From: Escherichia coli
GTDB taxonomy: Bacteria > Pseudomonadota > Gammaproteobacteria > Enterobacterales > Enterobacteriaceae
Direction: 5' to 3' (one strand)
NCBI RefSeq assembly: GCF_003334255.1
Contig: NZ_QOWU01000058.1
DNA length: 32,432 bases
Numbering within the stretch: position 1 is the first letter of the stretch; each line of letters starts with the position of its first letter. Made by a program: the position numbers and the translations under genes. Under the pieces are notes generated by a model. That model saw only the letters and a list, made by a program, of their open reading frames with translations, did not search any database and was not told where the DNA came from. Of this stretch, positions 181 to 8,606 are shown piece by piece.

Positions 181-1409
181 GATAACGGTTCATGTATCCC
201 CTGAGCTGACAGTGTACCGTGTATATTAAGCGTAACCGACAGGTTCTCCTTCATACCATATTAAATTTTCCAGGTATTGCCGCTGCCTTATTTCGTCCCA
301 TACAGGAAAACTCATCTGGGTTTCTGACAAATACGCGAAACTCACAGCCCCTCAATATCAACCACACGTTGTAAGCCGGTAATACCTGAAAATCAGCCCA
401 TTACTGCCCACGCCTCCGGCACCATTCCCTTTTGATTTCGAATTCTTTGTTGTCGCTATACCGCTTAATGTTCCCGGTCCTCCGGTGCAGATAACACCGG
501 AGTCATCGTAGCGCTGCTTCAATATTCAGGTGACATATTTCCAGACGGAAGCCGGCGCGCGATCGTAAAGTTTGTTAATTGTCAGTTCTGCCAGCCGGTT
601 GTCAACGGCAGAGTTAAAGGCTTCCAGCTCCGCAAGGGTAAGTTTATAACGCGTGTGGGAATTCACTTTTCCCGCGTCTCCTGACGTATTACGGGCTGCC
701 ACTTACCTGGTGTCCCGCAATACAGCCTTAGTGTTCCGTTATCGGGGATCCGGACGCACCGCAACAACCGGGGAAGTATTTCTGGTTTAGAGCAGTGTCA
801 AGAGGGATTTCTCAGCCCCTCACTCACCGGCTCAGTCTCAGGGCAGGAGCATTAATACGCTCAGTTCATGTCTTATACAGGAATGGGCACAGGGGGAGCT
901 GGCGTGTCACTGCTGATTTTACGCATCAGCGTTCATGTATCTGCACTCTGATACATGAACGATTCACAGCGCTCTGTTACCGGAGAGATTTACTCTCTTA
1001 GCTTACTCTGGCAAATCCTTTACGTTACTCTCTGATGACTTCTTATATTTATAATACCAATCAGACAGCCTTATCCCATCGGTGATATCAGTCTCCTCCT
1101 CGCCAGGAACGGGCTGACTCACTGTAACCACCTCCGAAAACAACTCTGCAATTATCAGAACGCCTGCTTCTCTCCCTGTCCTCACGAAAACTACCCCCTC
1201 TTTATCGCGCGTGCGTGCGGAAGCATCTTTTCGCAACAACCACCCGGTATACCGGTACGGCTCAGCCACCGCAACCTCCCCGTTTATCTCCTGGCGGTCA
1301 CATTCCCGATTATTTTTTACGTTTCTCCCCGGTTGTTATGCCGGTGAAGGTGGCGCGCTGTTTTCATGACCACACCGGCTGGTTTAACAACATCCGGAGG
1401 AACATTCTC

Positions 1410-1616: not shown

Positions 1617-1710
1617 TTTCTGACCGTTATCCGTTCACCCGCAGCAGACGTAATCCCCGGCCTGCCGGCGGCATTCTGCTGCCTGTTATATCCCCGTGAG
1701 GAATATGAAA

Positions 1711-2313
1711 ATGAAACAACAGTATCAGACCCGCTACGAATGGCTCCACGAAAGCTACCAGAAATGGCTGACCGGCTTCACCCGGCACGCCGTATCCTGG
1801 GGCGTGTGTCATCCGAATATCTACTACTTCCATAATCTGACGCCCGGGTGGGTGTCATTCAATGGTGAAAAACCGGAGATTGCCATCGTACCCCAGAGCC
1901 TGCACCGGCTGATTTATGGCCCTGACAAACGGGCCACGCCGCCCCTGGATGATGATCTGATCGTGAATTTATGCACCAGTGAACATCTGCTGGTTCATCA
2001 TCCGATGCTGGAAGGCATTCTCCTGTCTGAATGTGAACGTCTGAGGCAGCGTTCTCTGGCAAATAAACTGATTAGCCTCTTCCGTCAGTTTGGTGGCACG
2101 GAGTTGCGCCTCAAACTGGTCTGGCTTTGCTGGCTTGATTTAATGACCGGAAACAGCCTTGAAGACTGGAAAGAGAACCTGAAACGGAAATCAGAAAAAG
2201 AGCTGGAGGAATGGATCATCAACCGTCAGAGGCAGAGCACAGCACTGACGGATCTGATGGATCAGTACGTGCTCCTGGCATACCGCACAACGGTTGACGA
2301 TAACCGCAACTGA
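1711..2313 (+). CDS. Conserved island protein of unknown function (possibly YfjJ/YagK-like; family assignment unverified)
   Basis: ~200-aa ORF directly downstream of the alpA-like gene, with GTGAGGA Shine-Dalgarno at 1696-1702 and ATG at 1705 or 1711. No diagnostic motif recognised by eye. Confidence 0.55.
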   Translation: MKQQYQTRYEWLHESYQKWLTGFTRHAVSWGVCHPNIYYFHNLTPGWVSFNGEKPEIAIVPQSLHRLIYGPDKRATPPLDDDLIVNLCTSEHLLVHHPMLEGILLSECERLRQRSLANKLISLFRQFGGTELRLKLVWLCWLDLMTGNSLEDWKENLKRKSEKELEEWIINRQRQSTALTDLMDQYVLLAYRTTVDDNRN

Positions 2314-3513
2314 TGCCGGTTGCTTCCGGAAGGTGTGACAAAATACGGAAATGATGATGCTCCCGGCCCCGCATGCTCACCTGCAGAGCGTGTTCGTCGT
2401 CATCATACTGAGCCATGACGGGCGTCTTAAGGGCATCCTGTCATTGCTGAGCAGGCAACACCACCAGAGGAGCCACGGACAGGGATGTTCTTTACAGCCC
2501 GATGCACGCCAGGTTCTCAGCAGACTGAATGTGCAGGTGCGGTTATTCACCAGAAATGGCATGCTGCGGTACATACCCATCCTGGTGACAATATGTACGT
2601 GGCGACAGCGATCCCGGCACTGTGGAAGAGACTCACTCAGCCTGCAGGATATTCTTTCCGGCATCCGGGAATGTCCGCCTGAATGCAAACAGGATGATAT
2701 TTGAATCCGTAATACTGTTCTTTCATCATAAATAATTTATGCAGATACAGTTAACCGTAACAGTAGCAGGTTTGTTTTCCCGGGAAATAATATCCGTCAG
2801 ACTGATGCCGGAACATATCTGAAACACGTTATGATGTTTTGTTATCAGAAATGTTGTATATTCTTATCCGTGGCGACAGTTTAATGCCCTCTGGTATCAC
2901 CTGATAATGCATATCCTGCGATGATTCGTTATATTTACGGGACACGCCTCTTTTCATTGTGCTCCTTTTCAGACTTCATTTTCCGTAAGTGTTCCCCGGC
3001 ATAAAGGAGGTACCTTTCTGGCGTTTATAACTCTCTTTATCGGTGACGCCGGTAATACAGGGAATACCACACCGACAAACGAGGTATTAACAGACGATAT
3101 TTCAGTGTCCATAATTTTTCTGTCCGGTTAAATAACGTCAGTCTGCTGCCCTCTGACTGTAATCATCAAAGCCGGAATGCATACCGGGTTACAACGTAAA
3201 AAAAGTGATGCTGGCCCCCGGTGCAGCTGGCGGGCGAAACATGTTTACCTTTCAATACCCCCTGTCTGCAGTCTCCACTCTTCCATCCTCTTAAGCTACG
3301 TCGGCCACATGAGTGCACTTCCATGATAACAGGTATTCCTGTCAGCATAACGAAGCCGGTTACCTTCCCTTCCTCCTGCATTTCCTGTCAGAATGACTGT
3401 ACAGCGCGCAGATTGCCTTTTTATTGACCACCTTAATATACCATTATAAACTTCTTTTTATCATGTTATTATCACCTTATTATGTTTAATTTTTAAGCAA
3501 CCGGAGAAAGAGG

Positions 3514-4431
3514 ATGGTTCAGAAAATTTTGTCGGATAAGGTTATGAATGAAAGAACAAATGCGTATTACTCTTATTATCTTGGAGAGCGTAATATCTCC
3601 GTACTACCCCTTAATGTTTATGATCCCCCGGAACGTTTTATCGCTTACATAAAAAAAAACAGAGAAAATCTGAACATCACACTTTCAGATTTTGAACTTG
3701 AACAAATAATTTCTGGTATGCGTCTGAAGGCCCTGGCCTTCCTGGTCCCCCTGGAAAAAATATCCTGGATCGCGGGCAGTGAACGCGCATGCTTATTTTC
3801 CTGGTATCTGTTGATGCAGTTTATCCAGAATAACAGGGCAAAAATAAGCGCAGACTTGCTTCAAAAGAATAAACTGTATCTTAAAGAAGAGTATCTGGAA
3901 GGGAATGCCTTCCCGTCGGACTCATCGACACAGTTCAGACAAATACTCAGAGTTCTCGATATTCTTTCTGATAAGAATTTGCGGGATGAGTGGATAATCC
4001 AGACCAAAGACAGATGGATGCGGGCATTTAAATCAAAGAGTCCTTTCAGTTACCTCCTCCCGGAGAACGAACATGAATGCATATGGACATGGAATTATTT
4101 GAAGGGAAAAAATATTGCACTGGAAAAACTGGCCAGTTTTCCTGGTTCTGCTGATATTTACCACGCAATTCACCTTTCATTTGACATATGGGTTACCTGT
4201 CCACTCACCTCACCTGACGATATAAAAAATTTCAGAAACAGTTTCAATAAGGCCAAGGCGCAGCGCAAGTACAAAAAAATGCAGGAAGATAAAGTCAATG
4301 TACAGTTTTTTCTTGACGCAGAAACCAGGGCGCAGCTCAAAGAATTATCGAGGGTCAGAAGACTCAGTACCGGCGAAATGCTGCATGACCTGATTGTTGA
4401 AGAGTATAAAAGGTACCGACATTCCAGATAA
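3514..4431 (+). CDS. Orphan hypothetical protein (305 aa) with a C-terminal ribbon-helix-helix-like segment
   Basis: Clean 918-nt ORF in a visibly AT-rich segment, with AGAGG Shine-Dalgarno just upstream of the ATG at 3514. The C-terminus VQFFLDAETRAQLKELSRVRRLSTGEMLHDLIVEEYKRY has the strand/helix/turn/helix pattern of RHH (CopG/Arc-like) DNA-binding domains. The N-terminal ~260 aa are unrecognised and contain no P-loop. Confidence 0.65.
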   Translation: MVQKILSDKVMNERTNAYYSYYLGERNISVLPLNVYDPPERFIAYIKKNRENLNITLSDFELEQIISGMRLKALAFLVPLEKISWIAGSERACLFSWYLLMQFIQNNRAKISADLLQKNKLYLKEEYLEGNAFPSDSSTQFRQILRVLDILSDKNLRDEWIIQTKDRWMRAFKSKSPFSYLLPENEHECIWTWNYLKGKNIALEKLASFPGSADIYHAIHLSFDIWVTCPLTSPDDIKNFRNSFNKAKAQRKYKKMQEDKVNVQFFLDAETRAQLKELSRVRRLSTGEMLHDLIVEEYKRYRHSR

Positions 4432-4457
4432 TTTCAGACATATATTATCTCCGTGAG

Positions 4458-4499
4458 TCCCCCACCACCTTTCCGGTGTGCGGGGGTTTTGTCTTTTTT
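4458..4499 (+). terminator. Candidate rho-independent terminator (GC-rich dyad followed by a T-tract)
   Basis: gtcccccaccacctttccggtgtgcggggg followed by ttttgtctttttt, immediately downstream of the 3514-4431 ORF. The stem is imperfect. Confidence 0.4.
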
Positions 4500-4515
4500 C
4501 ACCGGGAATACATGT

Positions 4516-5388
4516 ATGAATCCGTCTGATGCCATTGAGGCAATTGAAAAACCGCTCTCCTCCCTGCCTTACTCACTTTCCCGTCACATCCTGGAACATC
4601 TGCGCAAACTCACCAGTCACGAACCCGTGATTGGCATTATGGGTAAAAGCGGGGCCGGTAAATCCTCACTCTGTAATGCACTGTTTCAGGGGGAGGTCAC
4701 CCCGGTCAGTGATGTTCACGCCGGCACCCGGGAAGTGCGGCGCTTCCGTCTGAGTGGCCACGGTCACAGCATGATTATCACTGACCTGCCCGGGGTGGGC
4801 GAGAGCCGGGACAGGGATGCAGAGTATGAAGCCCTGTACCGTGACATTCTGCCTGAACTTGACCTGGTACTGTGGCTGATTAAAGCCGATGACCGTGCCC
4901 TGTCTGTGGATGAGTATTTCTGGCGACACATCCTGCACCGGGGACATCAGCAGGTGCTGTTTGTGGTGACGCAGGCCGACAAAACGGAGCCCTGCCATGA
5001 ATGGGATATGGCCGGCATTCAGCCTTCTCCCGCACAGGCACAGAACATTCGTGAGAAAACAGATGCGGTATTCCGGCTGTTCCGGCCCGTACATCCGGTT
5101 GTGGCCGTATCGGCCCGCACCGGCTGGGAACTGGATACGCTGGTCAGTGCGCTCATGACAGCGCTTCCCGACCATGCCGCCAGTCCCCTGATGACCCGCC
5201 TGCAGGACGAGCTGCGCACGGAATCTGTCCGCGCTCAGGCCCGTGAACAGTTTACCGGTGCGGTGGACCGGATATTTGACACGGCGGAGAGCGTCTGTGT
5301 TGCCTCTGTTGCCCGTACGGTTCTGCGTGCCGTCCGTGACACGGTGGTCTCTGTTGCCCGCGCTGTATGGAACTGGATTTTCTTCTGA
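4516..5388 (+). CDS. yeeP: YeeP/YfjP/YkfA-family putative GTP-binding protein (50S ribosome-binding GTPase-like)
   Basis: Walker A GKSGAGKSS, DLPGVG (G3) and TQADK (G4-like) motifs. Sits immediately upstream of the Ag43 gene as in CP4-44. Start chosen at the internal ATG 4516; the GTG at 4453 is an alternative. Symbol is by synteny and family; yfjP and ykfA are paralogs. Confidence 0.8.
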   Translation: MNPSDAIEAIEKPLSSLPYSLSRHILEHLRKLTSHEPVIGIMGKSGAGKSSLCNALFQGEVTPVSDVHAGTREVRRFRLSGHGHSMIITDLPGVGESRDRDAEYEALYRDILPELDLVLWLIKADDRALSVDEYFWRHILHRGHQQVLFVVTQADKTEPCHEWDMAGIQPSPAQAQNIREKTDAVFRLFRPVHPVVAVSARTGWELDTLVSALMTALPDHAASPLMTRLQDELRTESVRAQAREQFTGAVDRIFDTAESVCVASVARTVLRAVRDTVVSVARAVWNWIFF

Positions 5389-5499: not shown

Positions 5500-5545
5500 A
5501 TAAAACGATCGATAAAACAGGTATCAATCGTTGCTATCGATCGTT
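5500..5545. promoter_or_regulatory. Ag43 upstream regulatory segment with Dam GATC sites (candidate OxyR/Dam phase-variation switch)
   Basis: GATC at 5507-5510 and 5539-5542 within aacGATCgataaaacaggtatcaatcgttgctatcGATCgtttat, ~220-250 bp upstream of the Ag43 start. The OxyR/Dam switch of agn43 is established knowledge; that this exact segment is the operator is inference. Confidence 0.45.
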
Positions 5546-5759
5546 TATAGTGGTTAATGGTCTGCGAAAAGGCAGCTGAATCTCTTCATCATGCAGAACG
5601 GAATTGCACACAACGGACTGATACTTCTCTGGCGGATGAGAGAGGGGAAGCATTTATGTCCGGGAAAAACCACTTTATCTGACCATGCTGTTTTGTACCT
5701 GCCGGTATCCACTTTTGTGGGTACCGGCTTTTTTATTCACCCTCTGTAAGGAAAAGCTG

Positions 5760-8606
5760 ATGAAACGACATCTGAACACCAGCTACAGGCTGGTATGGAA
5801 TCACATTACGGGCACCCTGGTGGTGGCTTCCGAACTGGCCCGCTCACGGGGAAAACGCGCCGGTGTGGCGGTTGTGCTGTCTCTTGCTGCTGTCACATCA
5901 GTCCCGGCACTGGCTGCTGACACGGTTGTACAGGCGGGAGAAACCGTGAACGGCGGAACACTGACAAATCATGACAACCAGATTGTTCTCGGTACGGCCA
6001 ACGGAATGACCATCAGTAGCGGTCTGGAGTATGGGCCGGATAACGAGGCCAATACCGGCGGGCAATGGATACAAAATGGCGGTATCGCCAACAACACTAC
6101 TGTCACCGGTGGTGGTCTTCAGAGAGTGAATGCCGGAGGAAGCGTTTCAGACACGGTTATCAGTGCCGGAGGCGGACAGAGCCTTCAGGGGCAGGCAGTG
6201 AATACCACTCTGAACGGCGGTGAGCAGTGGGTACATGAAGGCGGGATTGCAACAGGTACCGTCATTAATGAGAAGGGCTGGCAGGCCGTCAAATCCGGCG
6301 CAATGGCAACCGACACGGTTGTGAATACCGGCGCGGAAGGGGGACCGGATGCAGAAAATGGTGATACCGGGCAGTTTGTTCGCGGAAATGCCGTACGTAC
6401 CACCATCAATAAAAATGGTCGTCAGATTGTGGCTGTTGAAGGAACAGCAAATACCACTGTGGTTTATGCCGGCGGCGACCAGACGGTACACGGGCATGCG
6501 CTGGATACCACGTTGAATGGGGGGTACCAGTATGTGCACAACGGAGGCACAGCCTCTGACACGGTTGTAAACAGTGACGGCTGGCAGATTGTCAAGGAAG
6601 GTGGTCTGGCGGATTTCACCACCGTTAACCAGAAAGGCAAACTGCAGGTGAACGCCGGTGGTACAGCCACGAATGTCACCCTGAAGCAGGGCGGCGCACT
6701 GGTCACCAGTACGGCGGCAACCGTCACCGGCAGCAACCGTCTGGGCAATTTCACGGTGGAAAACGGTAATGCTGACGGTGTTGTTCTGGAGTCCGGCGGT
6801 CGCCTGGATGTACTGGAAGGCCATTCAGCGCAGAAAACACGGGTGGATGACGGCGGAACCCTGGCAGTGTCTGCCGGTGGTAAGGCAACAGATGTCACCA
6901 TGACATCCGGTAGTGCCCTGATTGCAGACAGTGGTGCCACTGTTGAGGGGACCAATGCCAGCGGTAAGTTCAGTATTGATGGCATATCCGGTCAGGCCAG
7001 CGGCCTGCTGCTGGAAAATGGCGGCAGCTTTACGGTTAATGCCGGGGGACAGGCCAGCAACACCACTGTCGGACATCGTGGAACACTGATGCTGGCTGCC
7101 GGGGGAAGTCTGAGTGGCAGAACACAGCTCAGTAAAGGCGCCAGCATGGTACTGAATGGTGATGTGGTCAGTACCGGCGATATTGTTAACGCAGGGGAGA
7201 TTTACTTTGACAATCAGACAACACCGGATGCCGTACTGAGCCGTGCTGTTGCAAAAGGCAACGCCCCGGTAACGTTCCATAAACTGACAACCAGTAACCT
7301 CACCGGTCAGGGTGGCACCATCAATATGCGTGTTCGCCTTGATGGCAGCAATGCCTCTGACCAGCTGGTGATTAATGGTGGTCAGGCAACCGGCAAAACC
7401 TGGCTTGCGTTTACAAATGTCGGAAACAGCAACCTCGGGGTGGCAACCACCGGACAGGGTATCCGGGTTGTGGATGCACAGAATGGCGCCACCACAGAAG
7501 AAGGTGCGTTTGCCCTGAGTCGCCCGCTTCAGGCCGGCGCCTTTAACTACACCCTGAACCGTGACAGCGATGAAGACTGGTACCTGCGCAGTGAAAATGC
7601 TTATCGTGCTGAAGTCCCCCTGTATGCCTCCATGCTGACACAGGCAATGGACTATGACCGGATTCTGGCAGGCTCCCGCAGCCATCAGACCGGTGTAAAC
7701 GGTGAAAATAACAGCGTCCGTCTCAGCATTCAGGGCGGTCATCTCGGTCACGATAACAACGGCGGTATTGCCCGTGGAGCCACGCCGGAAAGCAGCGGCA
7801 GCTATGGCTTCGTCCGTCTGGAGGGTGACCTGCTCAGAACAGAGGTTGCCGGTATGTCTGTGACCGCGGGGGTATATGGTGCTGCTGGCCATTCTTCCGT
7901 TGATGTTAAGGATGATGACGGTTCCCGCGCCGGCACGGTCCGGGATGATGCCGGCAGCCTGGGCGGATACCTGAATCTGACACACACGTCCTCCGGCCTG
8001 TGGGCTGACATTGTGGCCCAGGGAACCCGCCACAGCATGAAAGCGTCATCGGACAATAACGACTTCCGCGCCCGGGGCTGGGGCTGGCTGGGCTCACTGG
8101 AAACCGGTCTGCCCTTCAGTATCACTGACAACCTGATGCTGGAGCCACAACTGCAGTATACCTGGCAGGGACTTTCCCTGGATGACGGCCAGGATAACGC
8201 CGGTTATGTGAAGTTCGGGCATGGCAGTGCACAACATGTGCGTGCCGGTTTCCGTCTGGGCAGCCACAACGATATGACCTTTGGCGAAGGCACCTCATCC
8301 CGTGACACTCTGCGCGACAGTACAAAACACCGTGTGAGTGAACTGCCGGTGAACTGGTGGGTACAGCCTTCTGTTATCCGCACTTTCAGCTCCCGGGGTG
8401 ACATGAGCATGGGTACAGCCGCCGCCGGCAGTAACATGACGTTCTCACCGTCCCGGAATGGCACGTCACTGGACCTGCAGGCCGGACTGGAAGCCCGTGT
8501 CCGGGAAAATATCACCCTGGGCGTTCAGGCCGGTTATGCCCACAGCGTCAGCGGCAGCAGCGCTGAAGGTTATAACGGTCAGGCCACGCTGAATGTGACT
8601 TTTTGA
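5760..8606 (+). CDS. flu: Antigen 43 (Ag43) self-associating autotransporter adhesin
   Basis: 948-aa product. Extended signal peptide [52 protein letters not shown], repetitive beta-helical passenger (GG/NGG/TxVxxGG repeats) and a C-terminal beta-barrel ending in TLNVTF. AAGGAAAAG Shine-Dalgarno precedes the ATG at 5760. The antisense ORFs in the track across this gene are artifacts. Confidence 0.9.

Follow-up and report, generated by a model that had tools for sequence, protein, structure and literature searches.

Here, we analysed a 32,432-nt stretch of Escherichia coli DNA (contig NZ_QOWU01000058.1 of assembly GCF_003334255.1; hereafter the window) and examined an open reading frame (ORF) of 305 amino acids (aa) that lies on its plus strand at 3514–4431. 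The gene belongs to a family that keeps a conserved place in genomic islands of the CP4-44/CP4-57 (AlpA/Gp2) type, and its protein has an internally duplicated helical region in front of a C-terminus that is predicted to fold as a ribbon-helix-helix (RHH) domain. On balance, we favour the reading that it is a conserved backbone gene of these islands and encodes an autoregulatory, operator-binding RHH protein of their control region. An earlier note on this DNA had regarded the gene as an orphan at a variable cargo slot and as a candidate defence or abortive-infection module. The gene and the parts of its protein are the following (pLDDT, predicted local distance difference test).

3514–4431, plus strand: 305-aa ORF, ATG at 3514 and stop codon at 4429–4431; member of an unannotated gammaproteobacterial family of ~300-aa proteins.
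3514–3735, plus strand: helical segment, residues 1–74, with AlphaFold2 helices at residues 8–24, 39–48 and 59–76 (pLDDT ~90).
3736–4029, plus strand: helical repeat A, residues 75–172, with the motifs W85..R91-A-C93..W97, P134-S-D-S..D149 and W160..W168.
4030–4287, plus strand: helical repeat B, residues 173–258, with the motifs P177-F..C189-x-W191-x-W193-x-Y, Y216..F223-D-x-W226 and F240..K248-A..R251-K-Y-K-K.
4288–4428, plus strand: predicted RHH domain, residues 259–305, with a strand at 261–267 (VNVQFFL) and helices at 269–282 and 286–305.

The position, strand, length and C-terminal sequence given for the ORF in that note were all confirmed from the ORF list, and a purine tract (GGAG and GAGG) is located 1–11 nt 5′ of the ATG. 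The gene is not an orphan. It was found in 1409 of 5426 complete E. coli genomes, at 95–100% identity, in one to four copies and always on the chromosome, and full-length relatives occur across the Gammaproteobacteria. Genes that are 100% identical in E. coli carry the annotation 'hypothetical protein'; one of them is WP_000250228.1, which in strain HS lies at the CP4-44 site. Full-length relatives of 48–78% identity are present in Salmonella, Serratia, Enterobacter and Edwardsiella, and further relatives in Citrobacter, Yersinia (21% identical), many other Gammaproteobacteria and Klebsiella plasmids, where the copy on IncHI1B/FIB plasmids is 23% identical. A profile search of 1.84 billion cluster representatives returned 265 of them at E ≤ 1e-3, most ~300 aa long and aligned end to end, which gives a family of at least 265 clusters at 50% identity; every member that could be placed taxonomically is a gammaproteobacterium. 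UniProt labels the members 'Ybl124' or 'uncharacterized protein'. When positions 3300–4600 were used as query, some part of them matched 9169 places in 4159 of the complete genomes; the matching part was not mapped, and we take most of these matches to be the conserved start of the downstream GTPase gene.

The whole protein had no significant match among Pfam, NCBIfam, PADLOC or the sequences of the PDB. A Foldseek search of AFDB50 returned only ~300-aa proteins of the family. They belong to Enterobacterales, Vibrionaceae, Aeromonadales, Oceanospirillales and Moraxellaceae and carry the name 'uncharacterized', 'Ybl124' or, in rare cases, 'CopG family transcriptional regulator'; no fold relative with a known function was found by this structure search. 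Profile and structure searches, which the earlier note had proposed as a check, predicted an RHH-compatible fold and gave no match of the whole protein to a characterised housekeeping family; the family is uncharacterised, and its members live in islands. The protein falls into no described family; it would act like a repressor of the CopG/Arc/MetJ type and has a new domain architecture within this known kind of protein.

The genomic place of the gene was surveyed at 37 loci from many genera by tblastn with island backbone proteins; 28 of these loci came from a scan of one genome per species with a sub-alignment. Across this set, the family gene comes first among the rightward genes and diverges from a leftward Gp2-like/AlpA block, a place that is conserved between E. 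coli and Vibrio, Shewanella and Marinobacter, and also on IncHI1B plasmids. A common layout is seen in Serratia, Edwardsiella, Enterobacter, Citrobacter and Yersinia: the leftward block (Gp2-like YagK/YfjJ, AlpA and Zn-ribbon proteins) is followed by 0.4–1 kb of non-coding DNA and then by the family gene, 3′ of which lie genes for the GTPase, DUF932, antirestriction, RadC, DUF987 and CbeA/CbtA. The genes accompanying the family at the 37 loci were as follows.

Gp2-like gene (rolling-circle Rep-like), 31 loci: always upstream and on the opposite strand; at 24 of them, no more than 1.1 kb away.
AlpA, 31 loci: in the locus.
RadC, 28 loci: in the locus.
DUF932, 18 loci: in the locus.
GTPase, 10 loci: immediately downstream, in Enterobacterales only.
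Integrase, 10 loci: in the locus; at ~6 of them, a short way downstream and on the opposite strand.

The constant feature of the neighbourhood is the divergent pair of the Gp2-like gene and the family gene, and not the GTPase gene. A variable cargo slot is contradicted by this conservation across genera as far as the 305-aa gene is concerned, but cargo can be present in the interval from alpA to the GTPase gene, and on this point the earlier note was right. In CP4-57 of K-12 it contains yfjI, yfjJ, abpAB, yfjM and rnlAB; the 305-aa gene is absent from it, and no remnant of the ORF was found in the rnlB–yfjP spacer. A natural deletion was observed in E. coli HCM-25C-3 (locus L014; NZ_AP038238.1, 8457–9046), which removes the family gene and its upstream region and joins the 205-aa ORF that lies upstream to the final 46 bp of the gene, the terminator and the GTPase gene being kept. 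In these two islands, the family gene has been replaced or lost and is not itself a cargo. The island of Edwardsiella tarda (locus L005, 12697–15938) has an insertion 3′ of the GTPase gene that encodes a 770-aa protein with HTH_3 and dynamin-like parts and another protein of 310 aa; variable cargo of these islands may therefore sit at this point and not at the family gene. YfjH of K-12 CP4-57 (318 aa), which is similar in size and place, was rejected as a homologue (hhalign probability 0.5%, BLASTP E 0.63).

The AT-richness of the gene against GC-richer surroundings was borne out: its G+C content is 0.408 (0.451 at third codon positions), compared with 0.585 (0.632) for the downstream GTPase gene and 0.509 for the whole window. 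The family gene is AT-richer than its own locus at 36 of the 37 loci, and a drop of 16–18 points between the GTPase gene and the family gene recurs in six genera. Because of this recurrence, the low G+C content is an intrinsic trait of the family and is no sign of separate horizontal acquisition, which had been suggested from the composition of this one gene.

We next consider the protein. Its family alignment comprised 46 sequences of 18–78% identity. The full-length AlphaFold model, built with 14 homologues, is all-alpha with a mean pLDDT of 80, rising to ~90 over residues 10–255. Repeats A and B aligned with each other in hhalign with a probability of 97.6% (E 3.3e-12, 67 columns), whereas the best of 20 column-shuffled controls reached an E of 0.022, and by this profile comparison the two are homologous, a clear internal duplication. 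Residues 1–74 are possibly a third, degenerate copy; their comparison with repeat B (probability 44%, E 2e-4, 68 columns) is suggestive only. Repeat B closes with a basic helix running into the RHH. In the alignment, the motifs F.W....RAC.W.W, PS..ER...I..FFD.W and PF.WL...E.QC.WAW.Y recur in this order and are followed towards the C-terminus by E.Y.AI.A.FD.W and K.LF....NKAW.QKK.R. Most conserved columns contain W, F, C, A, L, I, R or D, each repeat having one Cys, and no conserved His/Asp/Glu constellation or catalytic-looking motif was seen among them. The first ~260 residues, in which no motif had been recognised earlier, contain an internal duplication with conserved W/C motifs.

For the C-terminus, we predicted the structure of a single chain in which two copies of residues 250–305 were joined by a Gly-Ser linker, with 35 homologues fused alike. 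The AlphaFold2 model of this tandem fusion consisted of two strand-helix-helix units, E12–18/H20–33/H37–56 and E82–88/H90–103/H107–125, at a pLDDT of 85–93. It has two strands only, one per copy, and these must pair with each other because DSSP calls a strand only where it has a bonded partner. The best PDB matches of the model were TraY, permuted single-chain Arc, DndE and AvtR, which we take to be known proteins with two RHH units per chain. Sequence profiles pointed in the same direction. RHH_1 of Pfam matched the 305-aa protein over the full model (residues 263–300, E 0.075), 6 of 10 close homologues at E ≤ 0.1 (best 2e-3) and members of the 46-sequence set with a best E of 1.1e-3. RepB-RCR_reg matched 4 of the 46 members at E ≤ 1e-3 (best 2.6e-4) and 12 at ≤ 0.1 in the broad alignment; CopG_antitoxin also matched one member weakly. 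A profile search of the PDB sequences listed SvtR (E 0.016), MatP (0.029) and CopG (0.22), and a PHROG Arc-like repressor matched residues 243–299 weakly (E 0.1). Since several independent lines converge, each of them weak to moderate alone, the assignment of the predicted C-terminal fold to the RHH class, already made in the earlier note, is well supported by the fusion model together with the Pfam, PDB-profile, PHROG and hhalign matches.

The DNA in front of the gene contains repeats that would suit such a protein. Their positions are given below.

3429–3488, plus strand: candidate promoter and operator, with a conserved box, heptads and a possible extended −10; the function is suggested by the sequence.
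3455–3461, 3466–3472 and 3477–3483, plus strand: heptads TTTTTAT, TTATTAT and TTATTAT, phased at 11 bp.
3473–3483: box CACCTTATTAT, with a second copy, CACCTTAATAT, 44 bp upstream at 3429–3439.
3464–3472: possible extended −10, TGtTATTAT, overlapping the heptad box.
2895–2909, plus strand: distal third operator-like box, TATCACCTGATAATG, 575 bp upstream.

The operator-like box occurs six times in the window at ≤3 mismatches, against 0.57 expected, three of the matches being in the upstream region, and the pair TTATTAT-N4-TTATTAT has no second occurrence in the 32 kb of the window (0 expected). The 30 nt at 3459–3488 (TATCATGTTATTATCACCTTATTATGTTTA) recur nearly unchanged in front of the orthologous genes of Serratia, Edwardsiella, Enterobacter and Citrobacter, and the proteins behind them are only 40–68% identical; with E. 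coli, five genera share the box at 3465–3488 in nearly invariant form. The CCTTA(A/T)T box 44 bp further 5′ is also kept in Serratia, Edwardsiella and Enterobacter. The same phasing is found with other sequences elsewhere: Yersinia has six TT.ATTA units at 11 bp, Shewanella four units and Providencia three 12-mers. Over the 110 nt upstream of the gene at the 37 loci, autocorrelation peaked at 11 nt (mean z 1.44, z > 3 at five loci) with harmonics at 22–24 nt, whereas it was flat in a control region further upstream.

In the majority branch of the family, ACTACGTAGT, a perfect palindrome of 10 bp, was observed (≤2 mismatches) within 80 nt of the start codon at 24 of the 37 loci, at 10.5 hits per kb near the start versus 0.21 elsewhere in the same loci, a 50-fold difference that is post hoc, as the palindrome had been picked by eye from the sequences before it was counted. 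Its role may be that of an operator or of an origin element, and it sits 10–80 nt upstream at loci L011 (Chromohalobacter), L030 (Marinobacter), L023–L028, L031–L033 and others. The E. coli-type subfamily has the heptad box and no ACTACGTAGT, and the beta-strand of its proteins reads (V/I)NVQF(F/Y)L instead of an LNTYL-like sequence. This covariation of box type and beta-strand fits a protein that would read these sites.

The window segment 2314–3513 corresponds to 1.2 kb without an annotated gene in the RefSeq record of strain HS; it may be a decayed gene, the gene of a small protein or regulatory DNA. A 42-aa ORF with a good Shine–Dalgarno sequence is present there on the minus strand (2829–2957) and contains the third operator-like box.

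The gene also appears to be transcribed on its own. The two features downstream of it are:

4459–4499, plus strand: hairpin resembling an intrinsic terminator (CCCCCACCACC...GGTGTGCGGGGG) with a U-tract, found by consensus scan between the ORF and the GTPase gene.
4516–5388, plus strand: YeeP/YfjP-like GTPase gene with NCBIfam GTPase matches, listed as genomic context.

RNA folds of this intergenic region in E. coli, Serratia and Edwardsiella each contain a GC-rich hairpin with a U-tract, and the stems differ in sequence by compensatory changes. Because the terminator hairpin is kept in three genera, the 305-aa gene looks like its own transcription unit.

Based on these observations, we propose that two C-terminal RHH domains would pair to form a beta-ribbon that reads the short repeats just 5′ of the gene's own start codon. 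In the E. coli subfamily, the sites would be the 11-bp-phased TTATTAT and CACCTTATT boxes, and in most other members the palindrome ACTACGTAGT. Binding there would repress the gene's own promoter, and in the ancestral layout it would probably also set the expression of the leftward Gp2-like/AlpA block, which is driven from the same divergent control region. The N-terminal modules, of which two are clear and a third is possible, would most likely serve the higher-order assembly of dimers on the phased sites, or the binding of a partner or signal. Autoregulation had already been raised in the earlier note, and it is plausible.

This proposal agrees with several properties of described repressors. 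Like the CopG/RepB-RCR_reg and Arc/MetJ RHH repressors (PF01402 and PF10723; clan Met_repress), the protein would have a beta-alpha-alpha unit in its C-terminal 45 residues, paired in the fusion model, and its candidate operators are likewise short helically phased repeats, or an ACGT-centred palindrome, near its own promoter. MetJ (met box AGACGTCT) and Arc bind such sites near their own promoters. As in copG-repB, the family gene is linked to a rolling-circle Rep-like gene (Gp2/YagK_YfjJ; 31 of 37 loci). Unlike the CopG-type copy-control repressors, however, the protein is ~6 times larger, and its gene is always divergent from the Rep-like gene and not co-transcribed with it; it may act in a similar manner but does not belong to that group. 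It also differs from RHH repressors in that the RHH stands behind a 255-residue duplicated helical region without a known relative.

A number of points weigh against an autoregulatory operator-binding protein. The RHH dimer model derives from an artificial fusion, and in the monomer model the C-terminal 45 residues have a pLDDT of ~55 with the strand modelled as helix, a low confidence that is expected of a domain folding only as a dimer. The query's own matches to RHH families are all weak (best 0.075, RHH_1). The covariation of box and beta-strand amounts to one evolutionary switch, a single contrast, and the enrichment of the palindrome is subject to the post hoc choice described above. Curved promoter DNA and replication origins can likewise contain phased AT-rich repeats, and those seen here could be sites for another protein, for example AlpA, Gp2 or H-NS. 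The Gp2 gene is not a direct neighbour of the family gene in this window, and it lies 3.7 kb upstream in strain HS. Finally, searches of the literature by name, accession and yeeP context found nothing on the 305-aa protein.

The main rival holds that the family is an architectural or origin-binding protein, which would coat the phased repeats or the palindrome beside the Gp2-like HUH gene and aid replication, TraY-like mobilisation, or MatP-like compaction or segregation of the excised island. We consider it unlikely, though it is compatible with autoregulation. Among the neighbours, the Gp2-like gene, always divergent, is the most constant, and members of the family match Pfam RepB-RCR_reg, which describes regulators of rolling-circle plasmids. 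At some loci, the arrays of 4–6 phased repeats resemble iterons, and several members are located at the island edge beside the integrase. The repeats nevertheless lie 10–80 nt before the start codon, the typical position of an operator, and we know of no demonstration that these islands replicate or are transferred.

MatP and TraY are the two known proteins on which this rival draws. MatP consists of a helical domain followed by an RHH, so that the order found here is not as unusual as the earlier note had supposed. This protein of the Ter macrodomain, which binds matS (PF06303 and PF17414; PDB 4d8j, 3vea and 7nyw), has the same order of helical domain, basic helix and RHH, and is the closest described architecture. 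Its profile match covers ~107 columns (E 0.029) and spans the helical part as well as the RHH. A short C/G-W-x-W-x-Y-L motif in repeat B resembles the MatP N-terminus, where it stands at the start of the helical part, scoring 24.1 against a maximum of 18.1 in 30 shuffles, over 22 columns and at a probability of 38%. Against this, hhalign aligned only the RHH with that of MatP (probability 81–90%, E 1e-5 to 1e-6, 36–37 columns), the MatP alignment in these comparisons consisting of three PDB sequences only, as the homologue search had yielded at least 120 near-duplicates of E. coli MatP, almost all of them 97–100% identical. The Pfam model of the MatP N-terminus matched none of the 46 members, and MatP_C matched one, at 0.059. 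No matS site (GTGACRNYGTCAC, ≤1 mismatch) was found in the window. The 305-aa protein lacks the C-terminal coiled coil of MatP and ends at residue 305 with helix B of the RHH; it has two or three helical modules where MatP has one N-terminal four-helix bundle, and it is island-borne whereas MatP is encoded by a core gene. Homology to MatP outside the RHH is unproven.

Of all structures compared with the tandem RHH model, TraY, the accessory protein of the F-plasmid relaxosome, matched it best (E 1.8e-3, TM 0.56–0.68). TraY binds DNA beside the site that is processed by an HUH enzyme. The match follows, however, from fusing two copies by design and is expected of any tandem RHH model, and TraY is without the extra helical domain. 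To our knowledge, no relaxase or oriT is known for these islands. A bolder form of the idea, in which the family would be the site-recognition partner of the divergent Gp2-like HUH protein and the pair, together with the palindrome or phased repeats, an unrecognised module for replication or mobilisation origin, appears to us rather improbable. If true, it would explain the spread and persistence of AlpA-type (CP4-6/44/57-like) islands in Gammaproteobacteria, and the duplicated helical part would represent a novel fold that binds DNA or protein.

The function proposed in the earlier note, that of a single-gene anti-phage or abortive-infection effector, with the RHH tail acting in autoregulation and the adjacent GTPase possibly taking part, is very unlikely. 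The uncharacterised, island-borne nature of the family would suit it; the related K-12 islands do carry abpAB and rnlAB between alpA and the GTPase gene, the GTPase has weak matches, at the P-loop level, to the LeoA and LeoBC models of PADLOC, and the gene is AT-rich and probably silenced, as are many defence genes. However, no family of PADLOC-DB v2 matched the protein at E ≤ 1, no homologue was found in phage records, and the conserved residues of this all-alpha protein look neither catalytic nor pore-forming. The neighbours of the gene do not indicate a defence island but are island backbone (Gp2, AlpA, GTPase, DUF932, RadC, antirestriction and CbtA/CbeA), its place is a conserved one, and the defence genes of K-12 CP4-57 occupy the slot instead of, and not alongside, the 305-aa gene. 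A partnership with the GTPase is disfavoured by its adjacency at 10 of 37 loci, in Enterobacterales only, and by the conserved hairpin and U-tract between the two genes. An unsupported candidate is thereby taken off the lists of possible defence genes.

An antitoxin-like or anti-defence role, in which the protein would neutralise an island-encoded partner in the manner of HicB or ParD, is highly improbable, because the gene has no co-transcribed partner. Antitoxins are common among RHH proteins, one family member shows the weak CopG_antitoxin match and the islands carry antirestriction and CbtA/CbeA genes, but the gene upstream points the other way, a terminator lies behind the family gene, the downstream neighbour varies (GTPase, glycine-zipper protein, integrase or housekeeping genes), neither a small co-transcribed gene nor a conserved partner toxin was found at these loci, and 305 aa with a duplicated domain are unlike known antitoxins.

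Islands of the CP4-6/CP4-44/CP4-57 type are among the commonest accessory elements of E. coli and carry adhesins, toxin–antitoxin and defence genes. An unannotated backbone family with a predicted operator provides a testable handle on their control region.

Several further features of the window were noted. A 205-aa ORF (1696–2313, plus strand) lies just after alpA and had no NCBIfam or PADLOC match; ORFs of 174–198 aa without an assigned function adjoin alpA in the islands of Serratia, Enterobacter, Citrobacter and Yersinia, and the 205-aa ORF may be another uncharacterised backbone gene. The left part of the island contains a gene for a nucleoid-associated modulator of the Hha/YmoA family (526–702, minus strand). 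The presence of this gene, together with the consistent AT-richness of the family gene, suggests H-NS/Hha silencing of the region. The sole Rfam match is the IS102/IsrC small RNA (5505–5741, plus strand; 63 bits, above the gathering score), which lies between the GTPase gene and an Ag43-like autotransporter gene (5685–8606); a terminator-like hairpin is present at 5701–5728. Beyond the island genes, the window carries metabolic genes (12857–29398): these include genes for methylthioribose kinase, methylthioribose-1-phosphate isomerase, a DeoR-like regulator and GntP, a fuculose-phosphate-aldolase-like gene, and genes for a xylonate dehydratase of the YjhG/YagF type, a DapA-like aldolase, the IIC component of a galactitol phosphotransferase system and an M42 aminopeptidase.

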